Source: Planctomycetota bacterium
GTDB taxonomy: Bacteria > Planctomycetota > PLA2 > JAEUHO01
DNA: 64,000 nt
Assembly: GCA_964228555.1 (NCBI GenBank)
Contig: CAXQZU010000040.1
Location: 47,511 to 111,510, forward strand
Reading direction: 5' to 3'
In this document: one piece after another, positions 5,928 through 62,352 of the stretch
How positions within the stretch are numbered: the first letter of the stretch is position 1
Layout: the number at the start of each line of letters is the position of its first letter
Notes under the pieces: generated by a model
The model's database searches: none
Seen by the model: only the letters and a program-made list of their open reading frames with translations
What the model was told of the DNA's origin: nothing
Made by a program: the position numbers and the translations under genes

Positions 5928-7093
5928 CCGAGGTCGGGGTCGGCCGCGGCCGAGGCGGCGCGGCGCGAGACGTTCACCAGCAAGCCCACGCAGGCCATCA
6001 TCAGCACGAGGTTGCTGCCCCCGACGCTGATGAAGGGCAGCGGGATGCCCTTGGTGGGCACGCTGTTGGTCACCACGGCCAGGTTCCACGCCGCCTGGAA
6101 GGCGATCACGAAGCCCGCGCCGCCCGCGAGGTAGACGGCCTGCGGCGACAGGGCGCGCGCGCCCAGCGTGATCTTGCGCGCATGCCAGGCGATGCCCATG
6201 AAGGCGGCGATGACCGCGGCGCAGCCCAGGAAGCCCAGTTCCTCGCCGATCACGGCCGCGATGAAGTCCGTGTTGCTCTCGGGCAGGTAGTAGAGCTTCT
6301 GCGTGCCCTCGCCCAGCCCGCGGCCCAGCAAGCCGCCGCTGCCGATGGCCAGCAAGGACTCCTTGACCTGCGTGCCGCCCGCGTCGGCGCCGCCCAGCCA
6401 CATGTCCACGCGCCGCTGCACGTGCGGGAACTTGAGCCACGCGACCACCAGCAGGATCGGGACGGCCGCCAGCATCGAGGGCCCCAGCCGCGAGGGCCTC
6501 ACGCCCGCGAGGGCCAGCAGCACGAGGCACTCGGCCACCAGGAACATGCTGGTGCCCAGGTCGGGCTGCACGAAGACCAGGCCCACGCCCAGCAGCACCG
6601 GAAGCAGCACGGGCAGGCTGGGCGCGGACGGGTCGAAGGAGGCCCGCCGCTCGCGCCTGGCCAGCGCATCCGAGAGGTAGAGCAGCAACGAGAGCTTGAG
6701 CAGCTCGCTGGGCTGGAAGCGCAGGCCCGCGAGGCTCACCCAGCGCCGGCTGCCGTTGACGCTCACGCCCATCACCATCGTCACGACCAGCAGCACGATC
6801 ACGGTCGTGAGCAGCGGCTTGCTCCAGCGCCCCAGCGTCTCCAGCGGCACGCGAGCCATGCAGGCACAGGCCAGCCCGGCCAGCAGGGCCCACGCCGCCT
6901 GCTTGAGCAGCACGCTGTTGGGATCGTGCCCCACGCCCGCCAGGCGGGCGCTGCTGCTGCTGTAGATCATCACGAGGCCCAGCGCCACCAGCGCCGCCGA
7001 CAGGCCCGCCACGCGCCGGCCGGCCGCCAGCAGGTCGCGCCCGGGCGGCACGCACGCCGTCTTCCCCAGCCAGCCCTGTGCCACGAATGCCAT
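5924..7093 (-). CDS. ftsW: SEDS peptidoglycan polymerase FtsW
   Basis: GLVMIYSSS, NGSRRW, FQPSELLK, QPDLGT, YLPESNTDFI..EELG, PTKGIPLPFISVGGS. Confidence 0.95.
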   Translation of the reverse strand: MAFVAQGWLGKTACVPPGRDLLAAGRRVAGLSAALVALGLVMIYSSSSARLAGVGHDPNSVLLKQAAWALLAGLACACMARVPLETLGRWSKPLLTTVIVLLVVTMVMGVSVNGSRRWVSLAGLRFQPSELLKLSLLLYLSDALARRERRASFDPSAPSLPVLLPVLLGVGLVFVQPDLGTSMFLVAECLVLLALAGVRPSRLGPSMLAAVPILLVVAWLKFPHVQRRVDMWLGGADAGGTQVKESLLAIGSGGLLGRGLGEGTQKLYYLPESNTDFIAAVIGEELGFLGCAAVIAAFMGIAWHARKITLGARALSPQAVYLAGGAGFVIAFQAAWNLAVVTNSVPTKGIPLPFISVGGSNLVLMMACVGLLVNVSRRAASAAADPDLG

Positions 7094-7097
7094 GGGA

Positions 7098-8453: not shown

Positions 8454-8504
8454 GGGCGCCAGCCCTCCTCGCACGCCCTCGCAGGGGCGGCCCTGGACAT
8501 GGGA

Positions 8505-9932: not shown

Positions 9933-9947
9933 GGCGTTCCTCGCGTT

Positions 9948-11465: not shown

Positions 11466-13285
11466 GGGCGGCCCTCCGCAGCCACGGCCTCGCCCCGGTC
11501 CGGCGCCACGCCCAGGTAGGGCAGGCTGCGGTCCAGGATCTTGCGCACGGCCGGCGCCGACACGCGGCCGCCGCTGCCTTGCTGGCTGCGGCGCGTCACC
11601 GCGCTCACCAGCACCACCAGCCTCGGCGCATTCGCCGGGGCGTAGCCCACGAACGAGCACACGTGCTGCGTCTCGGCGTGGATCACCGCCGTGCCCGTCT
11701 TGCCCGCGGCGCTGAAGGGCGAGCCCTTGAAGGCGCTGGCCGCGGTGCCCGTCTCCACGCAGCCCACGAGGCCCTGCCGCACCATGCCCAGCAGGTGCGG
11801 CGGGCAGATGGGCTCGCCCGGCGTCACGGGCGAGACGGTGTCCAGCATGAGGGTCGGGCGCGCCGCGCGGGCATCGGCGCGCGCGAAGGCCGTGAAGGCC
11901 GAGGCGAGGCGGATCGGCGTCATCGTCAGCGCATGACCGAAGCCGCTGCGCAGGAAGTCCGAGCGGCCGCGCATGCGGTGCGCCTTGCCCCAGCACACCT
12001 CGTGCGGCAGCTCGAGCCCGGTGGGCTGGTCCAGCCCCAGCCACGTGAACATGCCCTGCAGCGCGGGCCCGCCCATCCAGTCCGCCAGCCAGGCGGCGCC
12101 GGTGTTGCTCGACTCCGACAGCAGGCGTGCGAGGTCGCCATCGCCCACGAAGTGCGTGTCGCTGATGGCCTTGCGGTCGCCGGGAAAGTGCACGCTCAAC
12201 GGCATCGGGACCACCGTGCTGGGCGGCAGGCCCTGGCGCAGCGCCCAGGCCACCGTGAAGGGCTTGAACACGCTGCCCGGCTCGTAGAGGCCTCGGATGG
12301 GCAGGTTGGAAGAGGGCACGCGCGCGCCCGTGGACGGGTCGCAGGCCCGGCTGGCCATGGCGAGGACCTGGCCCGTGCCCGGGTCCAGCACCACCGCGCA
12401 GGCCTGGAACGGCTTCCACGCCGCCACCAGCGCATCCATCTCGCGCTCCACGTGGTGCTGCAGCACCACGTCCAGCGTCAGGCGTACGTCGCGCCCCGCC
12501 AGCAGGTCGCGGTCGAAGAGCGGCTCGTCGGCCAGCATGCGCGCCTTGCCGTCGCGGCTGACCGTCACGCTCAGCTGCCCGGGATAGAGGTGCCGGTCCA
12601 GCAGGCCCTCCACGCCCTCGCCCTGCCCGGCCTGGCCGCCTTGCGGGACGGGCACGCCGATCACGTGCATGGCGTAGTCGCCGTTGGGGTAGGCGCGCCG
12701 CTCGACCACGCGCACCTTGAGCGGGCGCATGTCGCGCTGGTCCGCCGCGTCGTCGAGGCCCGCCACCACGCGCGGCTCGCTCACGTAGGGCACGAGCACG
12801 AGGTGGCGTACCCCCGTGCGCATCCATCGCAGGCCCAGCGGGCCGGCCAGCACGCGGCGCTCGCCCCGGGCCTGCTCCAGGCGGCGCTGGAGCACGCCGG
12901 CCGTCAGGCGGTCGTCGTCCAGCGTGGCGGCCAGCTGGGCGCAGAAGGCGGGCAGGCGGTCCTCGGGCAGCACCTGCGGGTCAGGATCCACCGCCACCTC
13001 GCGGCCGAAGGCGCTGGTGGCCAGCAGCCTGCCGTGGCGGTCGAGGATGCGGCCGCGCACGCCGGCCAGCGTCATGCGCGCGGCATGGCGCCGGTTGGCC
13101 TGCTCGCGCATGGAGGGTCCCCGCACCAGCTGGAACCACGCGAAGCGCATCATCATGGCAGCCAGCAGCAGGAGCAGGATGCCGAAGAGGGTGTTCGTGC
13201 GCCACACGCGCACCACCTCGATCGTGCGGCGGGCCTCCCCGACGGGGATGGCGCGGGGCGGGGCGAGGGCGGGACGGCTCCTCAT
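11462..13285 (-). CDS. ftsI: class B penicillin-binding protein (FtsI/PBP3-like)
   Basis: N-terminal TM, RGRILDRHG, SVFK (SxxK), SSN (SxN), KTGTA; ATG overlaps the ftsL stop. Confidence 0.93.
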   Translation of the reverse strand: MRSRPALAPPRAIPVGEARRTIEVVRVWRTNTLFGILLLLLAAMMMRFAWFQLVRGPSMREQANRRHAARMTLAGVRGRILDRHGRLLATSAFGREVAVDPDPQVLPEDRLPAFCAQLAATLDDDRLTAGVLQRRLEQARGERRVLAGPLGLRWMRTGVRHLVLVPYVSEPRVVAGLDDAADQRDMRPLKVRVVERRAYPNGDYAMHVIGVPVPQGGQAGQGEGVEGLLDRHLYPGQLSVTVSRDGKARMLADEPLFDRDLLAGRDVRLTLDVVLQHHVEREMDALVAAWKPFQACAVVLDPGTGQVLAMASRACDPSTGARVPSSNLPIRGLYEPGSVFKPFTVAWALRQGLPPSTVVPMPLSVHFPGDRKAISDTHFVGDGDLARLLSESSNTGAAWLADWMGGPALQGMFTWLGLDQPTGLELPHEVCWGKAHRMRGRSDFLRSGFGHALTMTPIRLASAFTAFARADARAARPTLMLDTVSPVTPGEPICPPHLLGMVRQGLVGCVETGTAASAFKGSPFSAAGKTGTAVIHAETQHVCSFVGYAPANAPRLVVLVSAVTRRSQQGSGGRVSAPAVRKILDRSLPYLGVAPDRGEAVAAEGRP

Positions 13286-13551
13286 CGGCGCCCCCGCGCG
13301 GCCGGCGTCTCGCGCGGCGTCGTGGCGACGGGCGCCCCACCCTCCAGCTCCGTGAGCAGGCTGCGCGGCGAGGCCAGCGCCGACACCTCGGCCTGCGCGT
13401 CCAGCGTGCGGCGCTCGAGCAGCTGCAGCCGGCGCTCCATGCGCGGGATGTCGTACTGCAAGCGCCGCGACTCGCTCTGCTCCTTGATGCCGGCGAGAGC
13501 GGTGGCCACCACCGCCAGCGCCACTGCGATCGTCGTCGCCCAACGCGTCAT
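13282..13551 (-). CDS. ftsL: FtsL-like small membrane coiled-coil protein
   Basis: MTRWATTIAVALAVVATALAGI TM, a heptad region, then LASP; sits between rsmH and ftsI with ATGA overlaps on both sides. Confidence 0.7.
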   Translation of the reverse strand: MTRWATTIAVALAVVATALAGIKEQSESRRLQYDIPRMERRLQLLERRTLDAQAEVSALASPRSLLTELEGGAPVATTPRETPAARGRR

Positions 13552-14543
13552 GCCTGCGTCCCGCTCCCTTCGTCCTGCGTCCCGTGCCCTGCGTCCCGGC
13601 CCGCACCCTGGCCCCCACCGACCGTCCCGCCGCCCACCGACCTCTCGAAGACGCGCAACCGCGCGGGCCGTGCCCGCGGGTTGTGCTGCTCCTCCTGCTC
13701 GCTCGACCGGATGGGCTTGCGCGTCACCACCACGCCCTGTCCCGTGCGCTGCGCACCACGGAACGCCTCCTTCACCGCGCGCTCCTCGCCGCTGTGGAAG
13801 CAGATCACCAGCAGCCGCCCGCCCGGGGCCAGCGCCGCCAGCGCCGCGGCCAGGCCCCGCGCCAGGTGCCCCGGCTCGTCGTTCACCCACATGCGCAACG
13901 CCTGGAACGAGCGTGTGGCCGGGTCGATGCGCCCGCGGCGCAGCGCGCTGCCGCGGATGGCCGCGGCCAGCTGCTCCACGCTGCGGAAGGGGCGCCCACG
14001 GACCAGCGCACGCGCCACGGCGCGGGCCCGCACCTCGCCGCCGTACTCGAAGAGCACGCGTGCGAGGTCCTCCTCGCGCGCATGGTTGACGAGGTCGGCC
14101 GCGGTGGATCCCTCCTCCGTGGCATCGAAGCGCATGTCCGGGGCGGCCGCGCCGCCGCGGAACGAGAAGCCTCGCTCCGCCCTGTCCAGCTGCAGCGAGG
14201 AGACACCGAGGTCGAGCAGCACGGCCCGGGGCGCCGGCCAGCCGGCAGCGGCAAGCGCCTCGGCCAGCGTGGCATAGGAGCCGTGCACCAGCCGTGCGCG
14301 CGCGCCGAAGCGCGCGAGCCGCTGCCCCGCCAGCGCCAGCGCCTGCGGGTCACGGTCCATGCCCAGCAGCCGCGCGTGCGGGAAGGCCTCGAGGATGGCC
14401 TCGGCATGGCCGCCGAGGCCCACGGTGCCATCCACCACGACAGCGCCCGGTTGTTCCAAGCCCTGCGCGTCGAGGTGCGCGAGCACCTCGGCGAGCAAGA
14501 CCGGTCGATGGAGATGGGAAAGATCGTCAGCGGCCGGGCACAT
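13548..14543 (-). CDS. rsmH: 16S rRNA m4C1402 methyltransferase
   Basis: HRPVLLAE, DGTVGLGGH, DLGVSSLQLD..RGFSF, ATRSFQALRM.VN.E, NPRAR. Confidence 0.95.
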   Translation of the reverse strand: MCPAADDLSHLHRPVLLAEVLAHLDAQGLEQPGAVVVDGTVGLGGHAEAILEAFPHARLLGMDRDPQALALAGQRLARFGARARLVHGSYATLAEALAAAGWPAPRAVLLDLGVSSLQLDRAERGFSFRGGAAAPDMRFDATEEGSTAADLVNHAREEDLARVLFEYGGEVRARAVARALVRGRPFRSVEQLAAAIRGSALRRGRIDPATRSFQALRMWVNDEPGHLARGLAAALAALAPGGRLLVICFHSGEERAVKEAFRGAQRTGQGVVVTRKPIRSSEQEEQHNPRARPARLRVFERSVGGGTVGGGQGAGRDAGHGTQDEGSGTQA

Positions 14544-14549
14544 GCCGGC

Positions 14550-14987
14550 CTAGCCCGCGGGGTCGGCATCGGTCGGCTCGCCGACCGGGTCGCCATCGCC
14601 CACGTGCTTCTCCCAGCGCTCTGGGTCCCAGAGCTCCAGGTAGGTGTTCAGGCCCGCCACGCGAACGACGCGCGTGGGGAAGAAGGTCGCGATGAAACGC
14701 TTGGGCAGCGTGATGCGGCCCGGGCCCTTGAGCTCGACTTCCTCGGCGCGCTCGAAGAAGCGGCGCTTGCGCGTGGGATCGCCCTCGAAGCGGTTGGGCA
14801 CCTGCTCGCGCGCCATCTCCGCGTACACGCTGGCGGGATAGGCCTCGATGCACAGCTTGTCCTCGGTGGGCACGAGGTAGAGGCGGCCCTCGCTGTGCTT
14901 CTGGATCGCCTCGGCGAACGCAGCGGGGATCACCACACGGTCCTTGCCGTCGAGGCGGTGATCGCGATGACCGGTGAAGGGACGCAT
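14550..14987 (-). CDS. mraZ: division/cell-wall cluster transcriptional regulator MraZ
   Basis: FTG..HRLDGKDRVVIPA and GRITLP repeats, YLELW; first gene of the dcw cluster. Confidence 0.9.
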   Translation of the reverse strand: MRPFTGHRDHRLDGKDRVVIPAAFAEAIQKHSEGRLYLVPTEDKLCIEAYPASVYAEMAREQVPNRFEGDPTRKRRFFERAEEVELKGPGRITLPKRFIATFFPTRVVRVAGLNTYLELWDPERWEKHVGDGDPVGEPTDADPAG

Positions 14988-24602: not shown

Positions 24603-26060
24603 TCAGCGGGAGATCAGGTCCACGCGGCCGTCCTCGCTCACCACCACGGCGAGGCAGCGCTGCTCGGTGGAGTGCACGTAGCGCAGCGCGGAGTTGTAGC
24701 GCGCCCCGCGCGCGGGGTCCCCGATGCGGTGCGAGACGCCGTCAAGGATCACGCCGACGGCGAAGCAGGTGGCATCCAGGCCCACCAGCACGGCGCCGTC
24801 CATGCTGCTCACGGCGCGCAGCGTCTCGGCGTCCAGCGGCGCCGGCGTGACAGGCATGCCCTGGAAGGCCAGGCGCTCGGCCTCGTTGCGCGCGTCGCGC
24901 GAGATCAGCAGGATCGTGCCCTTGGGCTGCTCGCTGGCCGCACGCGCCAGGCGCAGCAGGACCTGCAGGTCCTCCTCGTCCACGAGGCCGAACGCGCGCG
25001 TCATCCATGCCAGGAAGCGCTGCTCGCTGAACGCATCCCGCACCAGGCGGGGACGGCCGTAGGTGACGCGCATCAGGCGGCGCAGGCCACGTGCCATCTC
25101 CCAGGTGGAGTGATCCTCGAAGGTGATCACGAACAGGCTCTCGCCGGCCAGCGAGCGCGTGATGTCCAGCGTGCCCAGCGCATGCACGTGCGATCCGTCG
25201 CTGAGCAGCGACACGCCCTGCCGGCAGGTGACGAGCAGCTTGCGCACCACGGGCACGTCGTGCAGCCGCACCGGCGCGGCCAGCACCATGCGCCGCTGCA
25301 GGCCGGGATGGCCGGGCCGCGCCACGATGATGCGGCCGCGCGTGCCCCGCCCCTCGTGCGGCATCCCGGCCAGCGTGGTGCAGGTCTGGAACAGCCCGCG
25401 CAGGTCGAGGTCCTGGCCGGCGCCCAGCGCCGGACGGTCGGCAAGGCGACGACCGGCGCTGGCCAGCACCTCCTCCGGGTCGTGGTCCAGCAGGGGCTCG
25501 CTGCCCCGCTCTGCCGAGTCCAGCACCGCCGCCGAGAAGCGCCGCAGCAGGTCGTGGGTGACCGCATCCAGCAGGGAGGTGGGCCGCCGCTCGCGCCGGT
25601 CCAGATCGCCATCCTGCAGGCTGTCGTAGGCGCTCCACGCGGCACGCGCCACGCGCACGATGGGCAGCAGCGCCCCGCCCTCCACGCTGCGGCCCTCGCC
25701 TGCGAACCACGACCACTCGCCGGCCGGCTCGTGGGCGGCGAGCACCTGCTGCAGGCCGTGACGCCACGCCTCCAGCACGCGGGCGCGCGCGCCGGAGGGC
25801 GAGGGAGTCGCATCGGCAGGCTGGGCGGCGCGGGCACGTTCCACCTGCGGGAGCAGGGCGCTGGGCAGGGCCAGCGCCGCGGGCTCGAAGGCCGCGGCAC
25901 GCAGGCCGGCCACGCCGCCGGTGGCCTCCAGCCGCAGCACGCCGACCTGCGGGTTGAGCGTGCGGTCCAGCCCGTCGTAGGTGGCCTGCGCCAGGGCCTG
26001 CGCGGCGGCCACGAAGCGCGCCCCGTGGGGCCATGCAGGGAGGGAGGTGGGCGCGCTCAT
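24603..26060 (-). CDS. diadenylate cyclase (DisA_N/DAC) domain protein with large N-terminal sensor-like region
   Basis: C-terminal GTILLIS...MDGAVLV...GVILDG...GDPARGARYNSA...VVSEDG. Confidence 0.82.
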   Translation of the reverse strand: MSAPTSLPAWPHGARFVAAAQALAQATYDGLDRTLNPQVGVLRLEATGGVAGLRAAAFEPAALALPSALLPQVERARAAQPADATPSPSGARARVLEAWRHGLQQVLAAHEPAGEWSWFAGEGRSVEGGALLPIVRVARAAWSAYDSLQDGDLDRRERRPTSLLDAVTHDLLRRFSAAVLDSAERGSEPLLDHDPEEVLASAGRRLADRPALGAGQDLDLRGLFQTCTTLAGMPHEGRGTRGRIIVARPGHPGLQRRMVLAAPVRLHDVPVVRKLLVTCRQGVSLLSDGSHVHALGTLDITRSLAGESLFVITFEDHSTWEMARGLRRLMRVTYGRPRLVRDAFSEQRFLAWMTRAFGLVDEEDLQVLLRLARAASEQPKGTILLISRDARNEAERLAFQGMPVTPAPLDAETLRAVSSMDGAVLVGLDATCFAVGVILDGVSHRIGDPARGARYNSALRYVHSTEQRCLAVVVSEDGRVDLISR

Positions 26061-26134
26061 GGGGTCACGGGGCCGGCGCGCGACTCTACCGTCCGGCGCG
26101 GCGCAGGCACAGGCGTCGCTCGCGGCCCGGGGCA

Positions 26135-28102
26135 TCACGCGTGCGCGCCGGGCTCCAGCACCATCGCCCGCACGGCGAGGATGGCCTCGGGCGTGCCCAT
26201 CACGGCCAGCCGGTCGCCCACCGCCAGCGGCACCTCGGGATCCGGGCTTGCCCGCGTGCTGCCGTCGCGGGTGTGCGCGATCACCATCGCCCCCGTGCGC
26301 TGGCGCACGTCCAGCGCCCGCAGCGAACGGCCCACCACGGCGCTGCCGGGCGCCACGACCAGCGTGCTCACGTCGGCCTCGGCCAGCAGGGCGTCGAGGT
26401 CCTCGGCCGGCGCGGGCGGCAGCGCCCCGTCCAGCAGCGCCGCGTAGCGCTCGCGCCGGATGCGCGCCTTCTCGCGCGCCACGAGGCGGTCGCTGATGCC
26501 GTAGGCCGCCAGCGCCCGGCCAGCCAGCTCCAGCGAGGTCTCGAACTCCTCGCTCACCACGTCCTGCGCCCCCAGCGCGCGCAGCGCATCCACCTCGGCC
26601 AGCAGGCGCGTGCGCACCGCGATGTAGAGGTCGGGCCGCAGCTTGCGCGCCACCGCCACGATCTGGCGGGCTGCAGCCGGGTCGGGGATGGCGATCACCA
26701 GGGCACGCGCATGCTCGATGGCCATGTGGCGCAGCATGCCCTCTTGCGTGGCGTCGCCGTAGGCGGCGTGGGGCACGAGGCCCTTGACCTCGCGCACCGT
26801 GGCGGGGTTGAGGTCGATCACGGCATGGGGCACGCGGTGCCGCAACAGCACGCGCCCGACGTTGCGCCCGGTGACGCCGTAGCCCACGAGCACCACGTGG
26901 TCGTCCAGCGGCGGCAGGGCAGCCCCCGCCGGGCCGGCAGACGGCGCGCGCAGGCCCCGGCGGTCCGCCAGCGCCGAGAGGGCCCGCACCAGGCCGGGTG
27001 ACAGCGCCATGGAGAGCACGGCCACGCTCACGAACTGCGCCTGCAGCACCTCGGGGAACAGGCCGTGCTGCGCCCCCGCCGCCGCCAGCACGAAGGAGAA
27101 CTCGCCCACCTGCGCGACGCCGGCCGAGCCCAGCACCATCCCGCGCGGTCCCAGCCGCAGGGCCAGCGCCGGCAGCGCACCCGTGAACAGCTTGAGCGCC
27201 ACGGCGCCCACCACGAGCCCCAACGACAGCAGCGGCGACTGTGCCCACGCGGCTGGGTCCACCATCATGCCCACCGAGGCGAAGAACAGGCTGCCGAGCG
27301 CGTCCTTGAGCGGCGTGATCTCGCTCAAGGCCTGGTGCGCGTACGGGCTGCCCGCCAGCACGATGCCGGCCAGGAAGGCGCCCAGCGGCGCCGAGCCGGC
27401 CACGAGGCCGCACAGCCACGCGGTGCCCAGCGCCCCCACGAGCGTGGCCAGCGTGAACGCCTCGCGGCTGCGGGTGCGCACGACCCGCTCGAGGAACCAC
27501 GGCACGAGGTAGCGCGCTGCGAGGGCCAGGCCCGCCAGCTGCAGCGCCGTCAGCGCCAGCGCCCCCCACGCAGCACCGGTCTCGCTGGCCGTGCCGGCCC
27601 ACAGCGGCAGGAACAGGATGGCGGGCACCACGCTCAGGTCCTGCGCGATCGACACGCCCAGCCCGAAGCGACCGTGCGGGGCCCCCACCTCGCCGCGATC
27701 GGTGAGCACGCGCAACAGCACGGTGGTGCTGGTCTGCGCCACCATGTAGCCGAGGAACGTGGCCTGCCCCAGCGTGAGGCCCATGGCCCGCGCGGGCACG
27801 GCCACCAGCGCCACCGTGAGCAGCACCTGCAGGCCGCCGCCCAGCAGCACGTACGAGCGCAGCCGCAGCAGGTCCCCGACCGAGAACTGCAGGCCCACCG
27901 TGAACAGCAGGAACACCACGCCGATCTCGCCCAGCTGGCGGCTGGCATCCTGCGAGGCGATCAGCGCCGTCCCGTGGGGCCCCACGAGCAGCCCGGCCAG
28001 CAGGAAGCAGACCACGGAGGGGACGCGCAGCCGGCCCAGCAGCCCCACGGCAACCAGCGACGCCGCCATCACGATCACGATGTCGCGCAGCAGGCTGTCC
28101 AT
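26135..28102 (-). CDS. CPA2-family cation:proton antiporter with RCK_N and RCK_C domains
   Basis: GEIGVVFLLFTVGLQFS, QD, GAFLAG, QVGEFSFVL; VGYGVTG..YGDATQ (RCK_N); GSAVVGRSLRALDVRQRTGAMVIA..GDRLAVMG (RCK_C). Confidence 0.92.
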   Translation of the reverse strand: MDSLLRDIVIVMAASLVAVGLLGRLRVPSVVCFLLAGLLVGPHGTALIASQDASRQLGEIGVVFLLFTVGLQFSVGDLLRLRSYVLLGGGLQVLLTVALVAVPARAMGLTLGQATFLGYMVAQTSTTVLLRVLTDRGEVGAPHGRFGLGVSIAQDLSVVPAILFLPLWAGTASETGAAWGALALTALQLAGLALAARYLVPWFLERVVRTRSREAFTLATLVGALGTAWLCGLVAGSAPLGAFLAGIVLAGSPYAHQALSEITPLKDALGSLFFASVGMMVDPAAWAQSPLLSLGLVVGAVALKLFTGALPALALRLGPRGMVLGSAGVAQVGEFSFVLAAAGAQHGLFPEVLQAQFVSVAVLSMALSPGLVRALSALADRRGLRAPSAGPAGAALPPLDDHVVLVGYGVTGRNVGRVLLRHRVPHAVIDLNPATVREVKGLVPHAAYGDATQEGMLRHMAIEHARALVIAIPDPAAARQIVAVARKLRPDLYIAVRTRLLAEVDALRALGAQDVVSEEFETSLELAGRALAAYGISDRLVAREKARIRRERYAALLDGALPPAPAEDLDALLAEADVSTLVVAPGSAVVGRSLRALDVRQRTGAMVIAHTRDGSTRASPDPEVPLAVGDRLAVMGTPEAILAVRAMVLEPGAHA

Positions 28103-54787: not shown

Positions 54788-55565
54788 CTACTTCACGGCC
54801 TCGAGCATGCCCAGCACGCGCACCACCTGCGCGTGCACGGCCGCCGGCGCCCGCACGACCAGGTCGCGCGCCGTGGCGCGCAGGCTCCAGCCCGCCTCGT
54901 CCCACCGGCCCGGTGCCACCAGGCGCTGCACGAGGTCCAGCACCTGTTCCGGGGAAGCCAGGGCATCGCCCGGCACCGGCATCTCGGGCACGGTCACCGG
55001 CGCCGCACCCCCCTCGGGCCGCAGGCCGACCTGCGGCCCCGGGAAGTCCACCTTCACCCACAGCAGGTGCGCGAGCCCGTAGCGCCGCGTCAGCAGCGGG
55101 CCCTCGGCGGCCGAGCGCGTCGTGATCCACACGAGCGTGTCCTGCACGCGCAGGGCGAGGCCGTGCGCCTCCAGCACGACATCCAGCAACGTGCGCACCG
55201 ACACGTCGTCGAGCCGTGCCGACACGCGCACCGTGTCCGCATCGATGCCTGCCTCGGCCAGGGCGCGCGCATCCAGCGCCCAGGCCCAGCCCGTCGCCGT
55301 GCGCAGCCAGCGCACCAGCGCAGGCAGCGGCAGGTCCTCCAGCTCGACGCGCGCGAGGCGCGTGGTGCGCAGCGCCGTCCGCAGCGCCTCGCCACGCGGG
55401 CGCAGGCTGCAGGGCCTGCCCGCCACGACGCCGCGTGCGATGGGCTGCGCACCCGCCTCCCCGGCCTGCGCGCGGCCCCCGGGCACGCCCGCGGCCAGCA
55501 GCGCGGCGAGCAGGGCGCAGGCGCCGCGGAGGGGGGTGGCGCCTAGGCGCGTGGCCCGCCCCCAC
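54788..55565 (-). CDS. hypothetical exported protein (STN/secretin-N-like domains); start unresolved, possible frameshift
   Basis: Signal-like LRGACALLAALLAAG, then VELEDLPL..LV.WL...VSARLDDVSV.TLLDVVL, TRRY.L, LVVRAP..VH.QV..VL; no in-frame ATG before the signal. Confidence 0.55.
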
Positions 55566-56856
55566 GCACGGGGCCCGGCGTGCGCAGCGCACGCATGGCG
55601 ATGTCGCGCCGCGCATACGCACCCTCGAAGCGGATGCTGTCCACGGCGGCATAGGCGCGGTCGCGGGCCTCGCCGTGGCCCGCGCCCAGCGCGGTCACGC
55701 ACAGCACGCGGCCGCCCGAGGTCACCACGCCGTCGTCCTTGGCCCGCGTGCCCGCGTGGTAGACGGTCACGCCCGGCAGGCGGCCCGCATCGTCCAGCCC
55801 GTGGATCACCTTGCCGGACGCGTACGCGTCCGGGTAGCCCGCGGAGGCCAGAACCACGCCCACCGCGGCCTGCTCGTCCACCTCGAGGGCTGGAAGGTCC
55901 TTGAGGCGACCGGCCGCGGCCAGCTCCAGGAGCGAGAGCACGTCGGTCTTGAGGCGCGGCAGGATGACCTCGGTCTCGGGATCGCCGAAGCGGCAGTTGA
56001 ACTCCAGCACGCGCGCGCCACCCTTGGTGAACATCAGGCCGGCGAAGAGCACGCCGCGGAACACGATGCCGTCCCGCTTCAGCCCGTCGATGGTCGGGAT
56101 CAGGATCTTGTGCAGCACCTTGTCCAGCGCCGGGCCCTCGGCGATCGGGGCCGGGCTGTACGCGCCCATCCCGCCCGTGTTCTTGCCCGTGTCGCCCTCG
56201 CCGATGCGCTTGTGGTCTTGCGCCGTCGGCAGCACCACCAGCGTCTCGCCGTCGGTGACCACGTGCACCGAGGCCTCCTCGCCGCGCAAGAACTCCTCGA
56301 TCACCACCTTGGCGCCCGCGTCGCCGAACTGGCGCTGGCGCATGCAGGCCTCGACCGCCGCCACGGCCTCGGCCGTGGTCTCGCACACGGTCACGCCCTT
56401 GCCGGCCGCCAGGCCGTCGGCCTTCACCACCAGCGGGTAGGCCTCGGCGTGCGTGACATGGTGCAGGGCCTCCTGCACATCGCTGAACTCCCGGTAGGCG
56501 GCCGTCGGGATGTTGTGCCGGTGCATGAAGTCCTTGGCGAACGCCTTGCTGCCCTCCAGCTGCGCTGCGTCGCGGCGCGGCCCGAACACCTTGAGCCGCT
56601 CGGCCTCGAAACGGTCCGCCAGCCCACCCACCAGCGGCACCTCGGGGCCCACCACCGTCAGGTCCACCTGCTCCCGCCGGGCAAACTCCAGCAGGCCGTC
56701 GATGTCGGTGGCCTGCAGCTCGGGCAGGCACGTGGCCACCTGCGCGATGCCGCCGTTGCCGGGGGCGCACCACAGGCGCGTGAGCCGGGGGCTCTTGCGC
56801 AGGGCCTGGCACAGGGCGTGCTCCCGACCGCCCGAGCCGACGACGAGCACCTTCAC
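55543..56856 (-). CDS. purD: phosphoribosylamine--glycine ligase
   Basis: VLVVGSGGREHAL, VVGPEVPL, KADGLAAGKGV, QDHKR...NTGGMGAY, EFNCRFGDPE, TSGGRVL. Confidence 0.97.
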   Translation of the reverse strand: MKVLVVGSGGREHALCQALRKSPRLTRLWCAPGNGGIAQVATCLPELQATDIDGLLEFARREQVDLTVVGPEVPLVGGLADRFEAERLKVFGPRRDAAQLEGSKAFAKDFMHRHNIPTAAYREFSDVQEALHHVTHAEAYPLVVKADGLAAGKGVTVCETTAEAVAAVEACMRQRQFGDAGAKVVIEEFLRGEEASVHVVTDGETLVVLPTAQDHKRIGEGDTGKNTGGMGAYSPAPIAEGPALDKVLHKILIPTIDGLKRDGIVFRGVLFAGLMFTKGGARVLEFNCRFGDPETEVILPRLKTDVLSLLELAAAGRLKDLPALEVDEQAAVGVVLASAGYPDAYASGKVIHGLDDAGRLPGVTVYHAGTRAKDDGVVTSGGRVLCVTALGAGHGEARDRAYAAVDSIRFEGAYARRDIAMRALRTPGPVRGGGPRA

Positions 56857-57133
56857 GCGATGACCCTCCGACGGCCTCTGCCCGGCCAGCCCGGGCGGTG
56901 CAGGGTACGGGCGCCCTGCGAGGGCCGGAAGGCATGCCCGCGTGACACGAACATGACAATCGAGGGCTTGCCAACGCCGGCGCAGCCCTCGTGGGGCACC
57001 CGCGTACCCGACGTGGGCGAGGGAGTTGTTGCGTTGAAGGCGCGAAAGGTTATTGTCCCCCCTGCCGATGGTTCAAGTACGAACCTGGCCCGGGCCCGTT
57101 GGGGCGCGGGAACCCTTGGGAGGACACGGTCAC

Positions 57134-57382
57134 ATGAAGAAGCTTCTCTCGCTCGTCGCCCTGGTGGGCACGGTGGCGGCCCTGGCGGGCTGCCGTTCGT
57201 CCTGCGAGCCCAACCCCTGCGCCCCGTGCGTCGCGGAGCCGGTGTACCAGAGCCCCTGCTGCCCGGCCCCCAGCGGCCGCGTGGGCATGGGCTCGGCCCC
57301 GGCCATGGCGCCCGCGGCTGCCCCCGCGGCTCCCGCCGCCGAGGCGGCCTGCGGTGCCGGCGGCAAGGCCTGCGGCAAGTAG
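57134..57382 (+). CDS. small Cys/Pro/Ala-rich lipoprotein 1 (82 aa)
   Basis: GGAGGA RBS; MKKLLSLVALVGTVAALAG-C lipobox; 8 Cys; own terminator. Confidence 0.8.
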   Translation: MKKLLSLVALVGTVAALAGCRSSCEPNPCAPCVAEPVYQSPCCPAPSGRVGMGSAPAMAPAAAPAAPAAEAACGAGGKACGK

Positions 57383-57410
57383 TCCGCTCCACCGCGGATC
57401 GATCGAACGA

Positions 57411-57448
57411 GAAGGCGCGGGGCGCACGCCCTGCGCCTTCTTCCTTTT
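57411..57448 (+). terminator. intrinsic terminator
   Basis: GAAGGCGCGGGGCG/CGCCCTGCGCCTTC stem followed by TTCCTTTT. Confidence 0.75.
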
Positions 57449-57504
57449 CATGCCCTGCTGCCTCGCGTACGCCGCGCCAAGCTGGAGCGCGCCCCGGAGA
57501 TGCC

Positions 57505-57693
57505 ATGACCGCCCCCCGTGCCCTCGCCCTGCTGCTGGGCCTCGTGCTGGCTGGCGGCCTGCTGGCCGGCTGCTGCAACGACATCTGCTGCTCGACGCGC
57601 ATCCCCCCGGATCCCTGCGAGCCCTGCCCCCCGCAGCAGGCTGTGCCCACCGGCTCGCCCTGGACCACGCCTCCGCCCACGACGGGCACCTAG
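57505..57693 (+). CDS. small Cys/Pro-rich lipoprotein 2 (62 aa)
   Basis: GGAG RBS; ...GGLLAG-CCNDICCSTRIPPDPCEPCPP. Confidence 0.72.
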   Translation: MTAPRALALLLGLVLAGGLLAGCCNDICCSTRIPPDPCEPCPPQQAVPTGSPWTTPPPTTGT

Positions 57694-57836
57694 TCCCCGG
57701 CGCCGGTTTTCACGCTGCCTTCACGCAAGGCTCACCGCGCCTTCGGACGGCGCGCTAGCATGCCGGAAGCAGGCGGGCAGCCTGCGCGTTCCCCTACCCT
57801 CCGGGCATCCCGCCCGGTCTCCCTGGAGCCTCTCCC

Positions 57837-58025
57837 ATGAAGATCCGCAACCTCGCGCTGGCCGGCCTGCTGGTGCTCGTCGGCGGCAGCCTCGGCGGCT
57901 GCTGCCAGGACCTGTTCTGCAAGATCCCGGCCTGCGACCCCTGCGCGCCCAACCCCTGCGACCCCTGCGCGCCGGCCGCGGCTGCCCCGGCGGCTGCGCC
58001 CGCCGCGGCTCCCGCCGCCAAGTAG
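57837..58025 (+). CDS. small Cys/Pro/Ala-rich lipoprotein 3 (62 aa)
   Basis: GGAG RBS; MKIRNLALAGLLVLVGGSLGG-CCQDLFCKIPACDPCAPNPCDPCAP plus (PAAA)n. Confidence 0.8.
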   Translation: MKIRNLALAGLLVLVGGSLGGCCQDLFCKIPACDPCAPNPCDPCAPAAAAPAAAPAAAPAAK

Positions 58026-58163
58026 CCGCGCCCGGGCGGCACGATCCTGGTCCCGCGAGCGGGCCGGCCTCCCCGAGGCCGGCCCGTTCCATGCCCGGGG
58101 CCGGCGGGCTCGCAGCCGGCCTCGCGCCGCTGCGACGATGTCATGGCCCGCGCCGCGCGAAGG

Positions 58164-58238
58164 TGGTCGGGGCGATGGGATTTGAACCCACGACTAGCAG
58201 CTCCCAAAGCTGCACCTCTACCGCTGAGGTACGCCCCG
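58164..58238 (-). tRNA. tRNA-Pro(TGG)
   Basis: CGGGGCG/CGCCCCG acceptor, anticodon arm GCAGC-TTTGGGA-GCTGC, GGTTCAAATCC, encoded CCA. Confidence 0.94.
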
Positions 58239-58296
58239 CGTCGCGAACGACTCTCGCAGGCTACCACGCACGCGGCCCGCGAGGCTGCAGGGCGCG

Positions 58297-60102
58297 CTAG
58301 CCGCCCGTGGTGGGCCCGCCGCCACCCGAGCCCGGGCGCGGGCCCGCGGGCGGGGGCTGTGGCGGAGGGGGCGGAGGCGTGGGCGCCTGCGGCGGCGGGC
58401 TGGCTCGCTGCGGCCGCGGCTCGGGCTCGGCGCGGCGCGGCTCTGGCGCTTCCTCGACGATCTGCACCTCCTTGCGCCAGGTCCGGATCACCGACTTCTC
58501 CACCAGCAAGGACCACGGCGTGGAGGCAAAGCGGCCACGCAGGCGTTCCATCGCGAAGACCGCCTCGGCCAGGCGGCGCGTGCGAGCCGCATCGCCCAGG
58601 TCCACGCCCCGGCGCAAGCCCGGCGAGGCCGGCGAGAGCACGATGCTGCTCTCCAGCAGGCGCACGCGGCGCTGCGTGACGTCCAGCGGCCGCACGCTGT
58701 CGAGCGCGGCCGCCAGTTCCCCCAGATGGAACCGTGCGAGGCGCAGTTGCGCCCCCAGCAGCAGGAAGTCGGCCTCGAGCCGTTCCAGCAGCGGGCTGGC
58801 CCCCGGCACCTCCTCGCGCGGCCGGCTGTCCTCTTGCTCCCAGCCCAGCAGGCACGCCTCGATCACCGCCACGCGCGCGTCCACCCAGCGGCGCGTGAGG
58901 GCGAGGTCGTCCTCGCTGGCATGCCAGGTGGGCGGCAAGGCCACGGAGCGCAGCATCCGGGCCGGGCGCGCCACGAGGGAGGTGCCCGCCAGCTCCACCG
59001 TGCCCAGCATGCCCACCAGCGGCACGGCCTCGTCGGCCAGCCGCTCCCACGTGCGCACGATGCAGCGCGCCCGCCCCTCGCGCGCGAGGTCGCGCAGGAT
59101 GCGCGAGCGGGGCCGCAAGTCGGGCGCCACCAGCGCGAGGCGCGACGGGTCGTAGAGGGTGGTGCGCCGGCCCGCCTGTCCGGCAGCCACCTGCGGGGCC
59201 GTGAAGTCGTGCAGGAAGTAGCGCCCGCCGCTGGTGTAGGCCAGCGACGCCAGCGGCCAGTAGCCAAAGCCGCTGGGCAGCGGATAGCGCGGCGGCGCCA
59301 CCCACAGGAAGTCCGTCCACGCCAGGTCGCCCTCCCAGCGGTAGGGCACCATGGGCCACGCCACCTCGGCGCCGAAGTGCATCGTGACCTCGCGCTTGCG
59401 CAGCTCGGGCGAGAAGCGTTCTGTCCAGCCGGCGGCCTCGTCCTTGCGCGGCACGTCCGGCACCGACCAGCCACGCTCGAAGGCCGCCTCGCCCGCCAGG
59501 GCGTAGAACGAGATGCCCGCCCCGAGCAGCAGGTCGCGCGTGGCCTCCACGTCGTCTTCGCCGTCGCCCCCTTCCTCGGTCACGAGCAGCAAGGCCTTGG
59601 GGCCGGTCACCTCCGTGCGCGCGAGGATGCCCACCGCGCGACGCACCTCGGCCAGCAGGTTCTTGGGGCCCTCGACCGGCGTGCGCGCCAGCGCCTCCAG
59701 CGCCGCGCGCGCCCTGGAGCGCACCATGGTGGGCGGCGTGCTGTCGCCGCCCGCCGCCAGCACGCCGACGTGCAGGCCAGCCGGGCCGTCACGGAACGCG
59801 TCCTCCAGGGCCAGCACGAGGCCCGGCAGGTCGTTGGCCAGGCTGCGCGTGGCGTCCACCCGCAGCAGCAGCGCACTGTCGCCCGCGGCCGGGACCCCGG
59901 CGCGCAGCCTGAGGTCGCCTGCCACGTAGGCGATGGCATCGCCCGCCCGGGTGCGGCGCTCGTAGACCTCGGCCGGCGTGCGCGCCGACCCCGCCGGCCC
60001 GGCGCAGGCCGGGGAGGGTGACGGCAGGAAGCCCGCCCCCGCCGCTGCGGCACAGGCCAGCAGGCCGAGCATGCAGAGGACCCTGCGGCGACCACGCGGC
60101 AT
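58297..60102 (-). CDS. exported vWA-like domain protein with Pro-rich C-terminus
   Basis: Signal peptide; VDATRS (DxTxS MIDAS-like), LLLVTEE, SGFG..PLASLA..SGGRYF. Confidence 0.6.
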   Translation of the reverse strand: MPRGRRRVLCMLGLLACAAAAGAGFLPSPSPACAGPAGSARTPAEVYERRTRAGDAIAYVAGDLRLRAGVPAAGDSALLLRVDATRSLANDLPGLVLALEDAFRDGPAGLHVGVLAAGGDSTPPTMVRSRARAALEALARTPVEGPKNLLAEVRRAVGILARTEVTGPKALLLVTEEGGDGEDDVEATRDLLLGAGISFYALAGEAAFERGWSVPDVPRKDEAAGWTERFSPELRKREVTMHFGAEVAWPMVPYRWEGDLAWTDFLWVAPPRYPLPSGFGYWPLASLAYTSGGRYFLHDFTAPQVAAGQAGRRTTLYDPSRLALVAPDLRPRSRILRDLAREGRARCIVRTWERLADEAVPLVGMLGTVELAGTSLVARPARMLRSVALPPTWHASEDDLALTRRWVDARVAVIEACLLGWEQEDSRPREEVPGASPLLERLEADFLLLGAQLRLARFHLGELAAALDSVRPLDVTQRRVRLLESSIVLSPASPGLRRGVDLGDAARTRRLAEAVFAMERLRGRFASTPWSLLVEKSVIRTWRKEVQIVEEAPEPRRAEPEPRPQRASPPPQAPTPPPPPPQPPPAGPRPGSGGGGPTTGG

Positions 60103-60175: not shown

Positions 60176-61270
60176 ATGCCCACCCTCACTGTCCCGCCTC
60201 GCTCCCGCTGGCCGCTCGGGCTGCGGGCCCTGCCCGTGGCCCTGCTGCTCGTGCTCTCGCTGGCCTGCGTCCCGGCTGCGTTGCGCGCCGACGACGGCCC
60301 CGCCCCGGCCGCCCCTGCGGCACCGGCCCCGCCCGAGGCCCCCAAGGCGGCGAGCGCCGCACGCGACCCGCTCGTGGTGGGCGTGTTCCCCATCGGCGAG
60401 GGCACCGTGGTGGACGGCGACACGGTGCGCGTGCCCGACCAGCCCTCCATCCGCATCGTGGGGCTGGACTGCGAGGAGGTGTTCCACCGCGACCGGGACC
60501 GCCAGGCCGCCGAGGCCGACTTCAAGGCCTACGCCCGCGACAAGCGCGGCGACAGCCCCCTGCCCGTGAAGTACGGCACGCCCGCCGGCGAGGCCGCGCG
60601 CGACTTCGTGCGCCAGCTGCTCGCCGGGGCCACGGCGCTGCGCATCGAGCGCGACGGCCTGCAGGGGCCCGAGCGAGACGGCTTCGACCGCCTGCTGGGC
60701 CACGTCATCGTGCTGCGCCCCGGACGCGAGCTGAACCTGGCCCTGGAGCTGGTGCGAGCCGGCCACTCGCCCTACTTCGTGAAGTACGGGCGCAACCGCC
60801 GCCTGGATGCCGAGTTCGAGGCCGCGCAGGCCGAGGCCCGCGAGGCACGCCGCGGCATCTGGGGCAGCGCGGGACCGGATCACTATCCCGACTACGACGA
60901 GCGGCTGGCGTGGTGGGCGGAGCGCGCCGCGCAGGTGAGCGCCTGGCGCGCCGCACCGGACGCCGAGGACCGCATCGAGCTGGGCACCGAGCAGGCCAGC
61001 CAGCGCCTCGCCGCACGCGCAGGCAAGCCCGTGACGCTGTTCGGCACGCTGGGTCGCATGCGGCTGGACGAGTTCCCCTTCCTCGTGTTCATGGCCCACC
61101 AGAAGGGCAAGGACATCCCGTTGGTGTTCCGCGACCGCAAGGTGCTGGATGCCGTGGACCCGGTGCGGCTGGCGCGCGGCTACGTGGTGGTGCGCGGCAC
61201 GCTCACGCTCTACCGCGGCAGCCCGCAGGTGGAAGTCGAGGACGCCGGCCAGGTGTCGCGCGCGCCATGA
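60176..61270 (+). CDS. exported thermonuclease (SNase) family protein with C-terminal OB-fold-like domain
   Basis: VVDGDTV, IRIVGLDCEE, DGFDRLLGHV, LVRAGHS, AREARRGIW. Confidence 0.87.
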   Translation: MPTLTVPPRSRWPLGLRALPVALLLVLSLACVPAALRADDGPAPAAPAAPAPPEAPKAASAARDPLVVGVFPIGEGTVVDGDTVRVPDQPSIRIVGLDCEEVFHRDRDRQAAEADFKAYARDKRGDSPLPVKYGTPAGEAARDFVRQLLAGATALRIERDGLQGPERDGFDRLLGHVIVLRPGRELNLALELVRAGHSPYFVKYGRNRRLDAEFEAAQAEAREARRGIWGSAGPDHYPDYDERLAWWAERAAQVSAWRAAPDAEDRIELGTEQASQRLAARAGKPVTLFGTLGRMRLDEFPFLVFMAHQKGKDIPLVFRDRKVLDAVDPVRLARGYVVVRGTLTLYRGSPQVEVEDAGQVSRAP

Positions 61271-62352
61271 GCCTGCACCTGCGCCACGGACTGCTGCTGA
61301 TCCTGGGCGCCCTGCTGGCGGGCCTGCCCGCCTGCGGAGCGCCCGCACAGTCGCCGTCCCAGGCCATCCCGGAGCGCGCGCGCACGCTGTTCCTCTCGCA
61401 CATCCTGTTCAGCAACCAGCGGCAGGCGCCCTCGCTGCAGCGCCGCCGCGCCGAGGCCGCGCTGGACCTCGTGCGACGCGGCACGCCCTTCGCCGAGGTC
61501 GCCCGCGCCCAGAGCGAGGACCTCGTGTCGCGCGCCGTGGGCGGCGTGCTGGGGTGCTGGCGCACGGGCGAGGAGGGCATGCAGGCGCTGGACGGGGCAG
61601 CGCAGGTCATGGCGGAGGGACAGGTGGCGGGGCCGGTGGAGACCACCTCGGGCTGGCACCTGCTGCTGCGCCATCCCTACGAGGAAGGACGGCAGGCAGA
61701 GGCCGCCTCGTACATGCCCACCTGGGGCGTGGTGGTCGCCCATGGCGACGGCCCGCCGGGCAGCGAGCGCAGCCGCGAGGAAGCGCGCGCGCTGGCGCAG
61801 CAGCTGCTGTCCAACCTCCGTGCAGGCCGCATCTCGCTGGCCGAGGCGTGCGCGCAGAACCCCACCAGCATCCGGGTGCGCGCCGATGGCTGGATGGGAC
61901 TGGTCTCGCGCACGCCCTTGACCGAGCCCATGTGGGACCTGCTGGCGCGCACCCCGCCCGGGACCCTGGCAGGCCCGCTGGAGTCCGACCAAGGCATCGC
62001 GCTGTGCATGCGCACCCCCCTGCTGCGCTGCATCGTGCGTCACGTGCTGGTCCAGCATGCCGGCGCCGAGGGCACGGACATCCAGCAGTCCCGCACGGAG
62101 CAGGCCGCCCGGGCCCGCGCCGAGGAAGCGCTGGCGCGCGTGCTGGCGGCCCCCGGCGAGTGGGAGCGCGTGGTGCAGTCCTACAGCGACGAGCTGGCCA
62201 CCCGCGACGACCTCGGCTCGCTGGGCTGCGTCGGGCCGCAAGAGCTGCCGCCGGAGCTGGAGGCCGCGGTGCTCGAGACCGCGCCGGGCACCTTCTGCCG
62301 GCGCGTGGTGCGCACCGCGCGCGGCTGGCACGTGGTCTGGCGCGTGGACTAG
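61267..62352 (+). CDS. PpiC/parvulin peptidyl-prolyl isomerase lipoprotein (multi-domain)
   Basis: LPAC lipobox; SHIL...FAEVARAQSED...GG.LG...GPVET..GWHLL; RHVLV...YSDE...GSLG...GWHVV. Confidence 0.85.
   Translation: MSLHLRHGLLLILGALLAGLPACGAPAQSPSQAIPERARTLFLSHILFSNQRQAPSLQRRRAEAALDLVRRGTPFAEVARAQSEDLVSRAVGGVLGCWRTGEEGMQALDGAAQVMAEGQVAGPVETTSGWHLLLRHPYEEGRQAEAASYMPTWGVVVAHGDGPPGSERSREEARALAQQLLSNLRAGRISLAEACAQNPTSIRVRADGWMGLVSRTPLTEPMWDLLARTPPGTLAGPLESDQGIALCMRTPLLRCIVRHVLVQHAGAEGTDIQQSRTEQAARARAEEALARVLAAPGEWERVVQSYSDELATRDDLGSLGCVGPQELPPELEAAVLETAPGTFCRRVVRTARGWHVVWRVD

Follow-up and report, generated by a model that had tools for sequence, protein, structure and literature searches.

Tandem genes for small cysteine- and proline-rich lipoproteins beside purD in uncultured Planctomycetes, candidate disulfide-linked envelope peptides

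Introduction

The closest described counterparts of the genes treated here are small lipoproteins and Cys-rich envelope proteins. The chlamydial lipoprotein OmcA has a presumed role in a disulfide-bonded envelope (available part of PMC2811131); Braun's lipoprotein, Lpp, is restricted to some Gammaproteobacteria according to the accessible portion of a survey (10.1101/2021.05.31.446380); and planctomycete wall preparations are mostly protein and contain Cys-rich YTV proteins, as excerpts of two studies state (PMC8567305, PMC12673574). Here three tiny genes in tandem, designated g1, g2 and g3, are described from a 64,000-nucleotide stretch of DNA (the window) that covers positions 47,511 to 111,510 of the forward strand of contig CAXQZU010000040.1 from a Planctomycetota bacterium (assembly GCA_964228555.1). 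An earlier note on the window, made from its sequence, had drawn attention to these genes and to their resemblance to OmcA.

The make-up of the planctomycete envelope and the attachment of the outer membrane to a thin peptidoglycan layer are open questions, and the family to which these genes belong offers concrete candidates. The array peptides probably help to build the cell envelope or to hold it together. More specifically, the reading favoured here, to which a probability of about 0.45 is assigned, is that they are abundant, extended, lipid-anchored envelope peptides cross-linked by disulfides, like OmcA in action and unrelated to it.

Results

Three genes with lipoprotein signals

The three genes are real. 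They are small open reading frames (ORFs) on the forward strand that lie in the 1.3-kb stretch between purD and a tRNA-Pro(TGG) gene (Table 1). Because the DNA here is ∼75% G+C, open frames alone are weak evidence. The G+C content at third codon positions (GC3) is 0.94 for g1, 0.92 for g2 and 0.95 for g3, compared with 0.95 for purD and 0.65–0.75 for five overlapping alternative ORFs, and in a sliding plot the GC3 peak moves into the correct frame at each of the three genes. Homologues of the array genes keep invariant motifs while their third positions vary, and GGAG or GGAGG stands 5–10 nt 5' of the ATG in all three.

A loose regular expression for a lipobox followed by Cys residues is no evidence on its own, because 12 other ORFs of the window match it too. 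The PROSITE-style lipobox rule applied here is passed by g1, g2 and g3 and by 60 of the 62 unique family sequences; one more passes at its second match, and P0033 fails, having Asn at −4. The earlier note had described three genes of 62–82 aa, each with a ribosome-binding site and a lipoprotein signal, and the coordinates, peptides, Shine-Dalgarno sites and lipobox rule agree with that description. Its remark that such genes are easily missed by annotation is borne out as well, these being real genes that match no curated family and whose relatives are named 'hypothetical protein'.

The mature parts consist of 13–17% Cys and 17–28% Pro. Mature g1 (63 aa) contains 8 Cys, 11 Pro and 17 Ala, mature g2 (40 aa) 6 Cys, 11 Pro and 1 Ala, and mature g3 (41 aa) 7 Cys, 9 Pro and 15 Ala; none contains His. 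All three carry a (D/N)PCxPC motif, as expected from the shared (D/N)PC.P motif with a further PC nearby that had been noticed before. The Ala/Pro tails that had been ascribed to all three peptides are present in g1 and g3, but the tail of g2 is rich in Pro and Thr. The array peptides also contain the CxxC motifs CAPC, CEPC and CDPC, vicinal CC and a C-terminal Cys pair, and the number of Cys residues among relatives ranges from 5 to 13.

The g1 family is laid out as an invariant core, a variable Gly/Ala/Pro linker and a nearly invariant C-terminal tail, CG(A/G)GGK(A/S)CG. Within the core, EPVYQSPCCPAPSG, eight residues (P36, Y38, S40, P41, C42, C43, P44 and A45) do not vary among 16 sequences. 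The CG..GGK.CG pattern is carried by 16 of 22 g1-type tails, several of which end in K or R. The tail is found also on g3-type proteins (L008:5289-5549 and P0041), and by the evidence of these sequences it is a mobile module shared by different gene types. A Phe or Tyr is conserved in g3-type proteins. Both g1 and g3 end in Lys; the same C-terminal residue closes 11 of 12 g3-type proteins, despite tails that differ in length and sequence, and none of the six g2-type members, and many g1-type proteins lack it.

AlphaFold2 models built with family alignments contain a helix only in the signal peptide (residues 3–22 of g1 and 3–20 of g3) and no secondary structure in the mature parts, with a mean predicted local distance difference test score (pLDDT) of 47.1 and 58.8 for the two. 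The ESM Atlas models have pLDDT values of 0.37 and 0.41. The structure matches obtained for them were discarded as meaningless for models with pLDDT of about 0.4, and the nearest Atlas clusters, unnamed Planctomycetota lipoprotein or hypothetical clusters at 0.79–0.89, are leads only. Sequence profiles of the Protein Data Bank gave no match below E 0.2.

Relatives and distribution

Homologue searches returned 15 relatives of g1 among 486 candidates scored (E 8.6e-41 to 1e-3; the name of one assigns it to a Planctomycetia metagenome-assembled genome, MAG), four of g3 and two of g2. The 62 unique sequences of the family set are short and compositionally biased, so that their E-values need care. 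With a profile built from 16 g2/g3-type sequences, a search of 1.84 billion representatives yielded 20 proteins at E ≤ 0.001; each is 41–96 aa long, has a lipobox and is of like Cys/Pro style. A scan of 185,579 species genomes for the g1 core matched 43 stretches, of which 8 encode a relative; the scan used one 8-residue pattern from the core, and the range of the family obtained in this way is a lower bound.

The family duplicates locally, and all eight related loci (L001–L008) come from Planctomycetota MAGs, in keeping with the earlier proposal of a gene family in a free-living member of the Planctomycetes–Verrucomicrobia–Chlamydiae (PVC) superphylum. Conservation, which the earlier note had made a test of its reading, is found both in the homologues and in synteny: in 8/8 loci the g1 homologue has purD upstream of it in divergent orientation. 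In every locus with over 1 kb of downstream sequence (6/6), one to five further tiny Cys/Pro lipoprotein genes come after the g1 homologue on the same strand, so that the arrays beside purD are tandem arrays of two to six genes. L008 has the order g1-g2-g3 of the window, and its g3-type protein bears the g1-type tail; L004 has g1 and g3, and L006 has six genes. In L002, L003 and L005 the array comprises a protein of ∼90–110 aa and lipoproteins made of NPCNQP hexapeptide repeats.

No Pfam family was matched by g1, g2 or g3 at E ≤ 10. Among 33 relatives only sub-threshold, unrelated Pfam matches were obtained (9/33), no chlamydial family and no YTV family being among them, and NCBIfam gave no significant family match for the three proteins and 28 relatives. 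The sub-threshold Pfam and NCBIfam matches are resemblances of the signal peptides to the signal regions of other lipoproteins (LptM, PG1828, YgdI/YgdR and LPAM_1). The relatives thus match no curated family, and 'hypothetical protein' is the only name that their sources give them. No description of such small planctomycete lipoproteins was found in the literature, in a search whose coverage of subscription journals was limited. Judged by these sequence comparisons, the family is real but rare, restricted to a clade of uncultured Planctomycetes, and fast-diversifying.

Relationship among the three genes

The earlier note took g1, g2 and g3 for a paralogous family. When signal peptides are included, hhalign joins the g1 family to the g2/g3 family with 98.4% probability, mostly from the signal peptide. 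With mature parts, the shared C-terminal tail alone is aligned (95%), and after removal of the three tail-bearing members only a 7-column xPCxPC motif aligns (22%); a BLASTP comparison of g2 with g3 gives E 0.49. The link as proof of common descent of the mature parts was rejected, the score collapsing first to the tail and then to 22%. What stands of the proposal is confined to three elements: the shared signal peptide, the short (D/N)PCxPC motif and a tail that can be transferred; it is not supported for the mature part of g1 against those of g2 and g3, for which a common origin is plausible on the basis of position and style.

Expression signals

The promoter-like site that had been pointed out upstream of g1 lies at the coordinates given, and its elements recur in related loci: a −35-like TTGGC or TTGCG is present in 8/8 loci whose sequence covers the position, and a −10-like TAnnnT follows ∼17 nt downstream in 8/9 loci, L003 deviating. 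The site is below the threshold of a consensus promoter scan, however, which listed no promoters. The terminator that had been reported for g1 has the expected stem and T-run; three terminator-like sites were found compared with 0.5 expected from shuffles, and g1 at least is separately terminated.

A GC-rich hairpin precedes the Shine-Dalgarno site of g1 in the 5' untranslated region (UTR). It was rejected as a regulatory RNA: its position is conserved but its energies are no better than those of shuffles (z −0.07 to −2.23), and covariation is weak, RNAalifold giving seven consensus pairs of which two have a compensatory change. It may serve as an mRNA-stabilising 5' stem. The promoter-like site, 5' hairpin, Shine-Dalgarno site and terminator together would give the layout of a compact, stable, well-translated monocistronic mRNA.

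Table 1. Features of the array, its surroundings in the window and its counterparts in related loci (window positions unless a locus is named).
Feature	Coordinates	Strand	Description
g1	57134-57382	+	82-aa prolipoprotein; signal peptide residues 1-19; lipobox LAGC, Cys20; mature 63 aa
g1-family core	57236-57277	+	EPVYQSPCCPAPSG, residues 35-48; conserved in 16-sequence alignment
g1 C-terminal tail	57347-57379	+	ACGAGGKACGK, residues 72-82; C73, G74, C80 and G81 nearly invariant
g2	57505-57693	+	62-aa prolipoprotein; lipobox LAGC, Cys23; mature 40 aa; Pro/Thr-rich tail
g3	57837-58025	+	62-aa prolipoprotein; lipobox LGGC, Cys22; mature 41 aa; ends in Lys
g1 promoter-like site	57029-57056	+	TTGCGT, 16-nt spacer, TATTGT; 7/12 consensus positions
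g1 5' UTR hairpin	57087-57110	+	GC-rich, just upstream of Shine-Dalgarno site; equivalent hairpin folds in 9/9 loci
g1 Shine-Dalgarno site	57118-57123	+	GGGAGG; GGAGG before ATG in 9/9 aligned loci
g1 intrinsic terminator	57409-57449	+	Stem 57409-57442, 15 pairs, 10 GC pairs, then T-run
purD	55543-56856	-	Divergent neighbour marking the array's conserved position; Pfam GARS_N/A/C
tRNA-Pro(TGG)	58164-58238	-	Downstream border of array stretch
TadA-like deaminase, Fur-family regulator, uncharacterised protein of ∼250-300 aa	53684-55540	-	Downstream of purD
601-aa protein	58297-60102	-	Convergent with array; L008:5858-7648, 60% identity; L006:15553-17526, 46%
PPIC-type (parvulin) prolyl isomerase	61117-62349	+	Two rotamase domains; also L002:11886-12986, L003:12092-13369, L005:12066-14957
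dcw-type cluster	1223-14987	-	murB, murC, ftsW, mraY, murF, murE, penicillin-binding protein (PBP) transpeptidase, mraW, mraZ
Diadenylate-cyclase domain protein	24606-26288	-	DACNG and DACNH sensor domains
Larger array paralogue	L002:10541-10846; L003:10821-11159; L005:10502-10765		∼88-113 aa; CC lipobox, DPCDP motifs, conserved CC(L/W)W
NPCNQP-repeat lipoproteins	L002:10983-11183, 11395-11613; L003:11230-11412, 11639-11887; L005:10927-11085		4-7 copies each

Neighbouring genes

Neighbourhoods of the related loci were examined up to 10 kb on each side. Among 55 ORFs of the window and 46 ORFs of the eight loci, no MNIO/DUF692, radical SAM, DUF11, YkuD or metal-handling gene was found. The earlier statement that no modifying enzyme is in the window is therefore upheld and extends to the loci, and the search that had been recommended for OmcB/DUF11 and DUF692 genes came out empty in both.

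The larger array paralogue of L002, L003 and L005 reaches the cut-off of no Pfam family. The NPCNQP-repeat lipoproteins that accompany it are nearly all repeat, with one Cys per six residues. The PPIC-type isomerase gene follows the array directly in these three loci and lies 3 kb downstream in the window; synteny may not fully explain why a periplasmic isomerase of this kind occurs near exported peptides rich in Pro. On the far side of purD, a Fur gene is present in 5/8 loci and a TadA-like deaminase gene in 5/8, L001 and L004 being too short: both occur in L003, L005, L006 and L008, as in the window, the Fur gene alone is found in L002 and the deaminase gene alone in L007. The conserved neighbour of 600–660 aa that converges with the array has a lipobox-like N-terminus, a poly-Pro/Gly C-terminus in the window and no Pfam family. 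The dcw-type cluster means that this planctomycete encodes peptidoglycan synthesis.

The tRNA-Pro(TGG) gene lies 139 nt past the Pro-rich g3, which is probably coincidence, and an Rfam scan of positions 56000–59000 gave nothing beyond this tRNA. In L002 the array is followed at a distance of 2 kb by an IS21-type transposase pair (rve and IstB, L002:13659-15931), and an AbiEii/AbiEi toxin-antitoxin pair (L007:4632-6130) is inserted into the synteny block of L007.

Discussion

Disulfide-linked envelope lipopeptides as the favoured reading

Lipidation, location, abundance and disulfide cross-linking are properties that we infer for the array peptides from their sequences. Sec would export each precursor, the lipobox Cys would receive a diacylglyceryl group, and cleavage by signal peptidase II and N-acylation would leave a peptide of 40–63 residues on the membrane and reaching into the periplasm. 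The anchoring membrane would probably be the outer one, residue +2 being R, C and C and not Asp, under a sorting rule that comes from E. coli. The mature peptides would be extended, because they are too rich in Pro and Cys for helices or a compact domain. Lipidation would leave seven thiols free in g1, five in g2 and six in g3; since the count is odd in two of the three, at least one thiol in each of these would stay free or bond another molecule. The range of Cys numbers among relatives likewise suggests variable intermolecular bonding rather than a fixed intramolecular knot. Abundant peptides of this kind would bond by disulfides to one another and to other Cys-rich wall proteins, stiffening or stitching a protein-rich envelope, which would be the job of chlamydial OmcA arrived at independently.

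A role as structural cross-linker is favoured because planctomycete wall preparations are dominated by protein and include Cys-rich proteins. The genomic context is counted in its favour too: the operon is free of enzyme and metal genes, and the dcw cluster and the PPIC-type isomerase are in the window. So are the coding and lipobox signals, the conserved tandem expansion beside purD, the lack of a predicted fold in the mature parts, and the expression signals of g1, whose arrangement would suit a small mRNA that is stable and highly expressed. Several findings weigh on the other side. The family is too rare (8 loci found with one core pattern among 185,579 species genomes, and 20 of 1.84 billion representatives at E ≤ 0.001) and hence cannot be a general component of the planctomycete wall, and the array peptides do not match the YTV proteins, the wall proteins that cultured species have been found to contain. 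As far as sequence conservation suggests, the invariant g1 core of 14 residues and the mobile CG..GGK.CG tail look more like specific recognition or binding sites than like parts of a generic cross-linker. Homology to OmcA was also not detected, and the window and the eight loci contain no OmcB-like partner.

Alternative readings

Ranked best among the alternatives, and nonetheless unlikely, is that the peptides tether the outer membrane to peptidoglycan in the manner of Braun's lipoprotein. The Ala/Pro stretch would be a spacer, and a Lys would be joined to the stem peptide by an L,D-transpeptidase, through the C-terminal Lys in g3-type proteins or the Lys-bearing tail in g1-type proteins, with extra cross-links from disulfides. 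The near-constant terminal Lys of g3-type proteins on otherwise variable tails is consistent with this, as are the CG..GGK.CG pattern of g1-type tails with its several K or R ends, a size close to that of Lpp, and an organism that has murB, murC, murE, murF, mraY, ftsW and a PBP. Precedents come from Salmonella LppB, which ends in -RICK, forms a Cys-Cys dimer and has its terminal Lys attached by LdtB (available part of PMC12681736), and from an abundant verrucomicrobial lipoprotein that occurs in the peptidoglycan fraction (excerpt of PMC10260701). However, the C-terminal residue is T, R or P in g2 and its relatives, and among g1-type proteins 5 of 22 terminate in GY and several in G; a coiled coil is impossible and the Pfam LPP model is unmatched, and neither the window nor the eight loci contain a YkuD-type transpeptidase. 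On an explanation of our own, the terminal Lys could also be just a cap without which the Ala-rich tail would look like a C-terminal degradation tag.

A bolder form of the tether reading, and a rather improbable one, is that Planctomycetes, or some of them, have in these peptides their missing outer-membrane tether: disulfide-locked, polyproline-like, lipid-anchored rods coupled to peptidoglycan via the conserved C-terminal Lys or the Lys-bearing CG..GGK.CG loop, and thus a hybrid of independent origin between Braun's lipoprotein and chlamydial OmcA. If a tether were confirmed, it would fill a role in a phylum for which a survey, in the portion available, detected no known outer-membrane tethering system (10.1101/2021.05.31.446380), a finding that also counts in favour of the tether reading.

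It is likewise doubtful that the peptides are membrane-anchored periplasmic metal binders, metallothionein-like or copper-buffering, whose Cys motifs hold Cu(I), Zn or Cd. The Cys content of the mature peptides and their several CxxC spacings would suit such a role, and metal-stress genes, too, are typically amplified in tandem. A regulator of the Fur family, encoded two genes away in the window and in 5/8 loci, might point the same way, but its gene, located past purD on the opposite strand, is inside broadly conserved housekeeping synteny, and Fur regulation was for this reason rejected as evidence; nor was a Fur-box-like AT-rich site seen by eye in the GC-rich promoter. Exported thiols would be expected to oxidise, the three peptides lack His, and no metallothionein, CopC/CusF-type or other metal family was matched. 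The g1 family has the invariant Y38 and g3-type proteins have a conserved F/Y, whereas classical metallothioneins are cytoplasmic and have no aromatic residues.

Lipidated precursors of ribosomally synthesised and post-translationally modified peptides (RiPPs) of the DAG-RiPP type are a further, still less probable explanation, which the earlier note had raised. On this view an MNIO or another enzyme, its gene lying elsewhere, would act on the tail or the PCC core while the precursor is still in the cytoplasm, and the lipoprotein pathway would anchor the product afterwards. The idea has become likelier in principle: the available part of a 2026 description (PMC13056109) reports RiPP precursors with lipobox signals, modification at a conserved C-terminal two-Cys motif, CPxCGxG, that unrelated proteins can carry, ChrH-like MNIOs that occur in Planctomycetota too, and oxazolins that use an EGKCG motif. 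The g1 tail is of comparable design: it is C-terminal, conserved and rich in Gly, has two Cys, and recurs on g3-type proteins. Even so, no MNIO/DUF692, radical SAM, YcaO or other RiPP enzyme is adjacent, in the window or at the loci. The tail consensus ACGAGGKACG is unlike CPxCGxG, EGKCG and CxxxxC, a few near variants including CGPCGY (P0017) and CGGCGGG (P0014). No NCBIfam precursor model was matched significantly by the three proteins and 28 relatives, the best match (a thiazolylpeptide model, E 0.04) falling on the signal peptide, and a fixed housekeeping position beside purD is unlike that of a biosynthetic cluster.

That g1, g2 and g3 are unexpressed chance ORFs in high-GC intergenic DNA can practically be set aside: long spurious ORFs are frequent at 75% G+C and the loose regular expression matches widely in the window, but the high GC3 is frame-specific, homologues keep their motifs as third positions vary, and Shine-Dalgarno sites, terminator and synteny are kept across loci of 66–76% G+C.

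Significance

Genes of 40–100 codons of this type go without family assignment. The favoured reading of disulfide-linked envelope lipopeptides would give a function to a conserved and unannotated family that holds a fixed chromosomal position, expands and shrinks in tandem and has sharply conserved short modules. Its distribution is narrow, and its importance is for now potential.

Comparison with known systems

Metallothioneins are small, Cys-rich, cytoplasmic proteins with CxC/CxxC clusters and no aromatic residues. The Cys content and CxxC motifs of the array peptides fit this description, but their conserved aromatics and their export and lipidation signals do not, and no metallothionein model is matched.

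With DAG-RiPPs, chryseobasin-like peptides, oxazolins and bufferins the array peptides share a lipobox and a short C-terminal two-Cys, Gly-containing motif on differing carriers (available part of PMC13056109). They differ in the motif itself, which is CG(A/G)GGK(A/S)CG as against CPxCGxG, EGKCG or CxxxxC, and in context: an adjacent MNIO defines the described systems, according to the same excerpt (PMC13056109), whereas the array has no MNIO or partner in the window or within 10 kb at the loci.

The YTV proteins of planctomycetes, much larger and with a repeat domain, have a Pfam model that we take to be named YTV, and the array peptides and 33 relatives do not match it. The likeness lies in Cys richness and taxonomy, the YTV proteins being restricted to Planctomycetia and linked to a protein-rich wall in the accessible text of PMC8567305 and PMC12673574.

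Lpp and the array peptides are alike in being small lipoproteins, the latter probably abundant too, in the terminal Lys that g1 and g3 have, unlike g2-type and many g1-type proteins, and in a presumably monocistronic mRNA with a strong terminator. Lpp is a helical coiled coil, whereas the mature parts of the array peptides are Pro-rich, are unstructured in the AlphaFold2 models and have no Pfam LPP match. In g1 a Cys stands two residues before the terminal Lys, and in LppB a Cys adjoins it (available part of PMC12681736).

A more distant parallel is offered by eukaryotic matrix proteins. Keratin-associated proteins, small proline-rich proteins and late cornified envelope proteins are small, unstructured and Cys/Pro-rich, are encoded in tandem arrays and are covalently cross-linked into an envelope or matrix. 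They are unrelated to the array peptides in sequence and biology, and the comparison is one of analogy.

OmcA is the nearest counterpart. Both it and the array products have a tiny precursor of ∼60–90 aa with a lipoprotein signal and a Cys/Pro-rich mature part, and both belong to the PVC superphylum; in g2 and g3 a second Cys directly follows the lipid-attachment Cys, as we take it to do in OmcA. The resemblance claimed by the earlier note thus stands for composition and architecture. It does not extend to sequence families: no family model is matched, the OmcA family (Pfam name presumably Chlam_OMP3) included, and none of the 20 profile matches is OmcA-like. Nor does it extend to gene context, for no omcB/DUF11 or other large Cys-rich gene is among the ORFs of the window or the eight loci. 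The array genes are set in tandem, two to six beside purD, their products have Ala/Pro spacers and the CG..GGK.CG tail, and their host is free-living with peptidoglycan genes. Membership of the OmcA family is therefore not supported, but a similar mode of action is possible.

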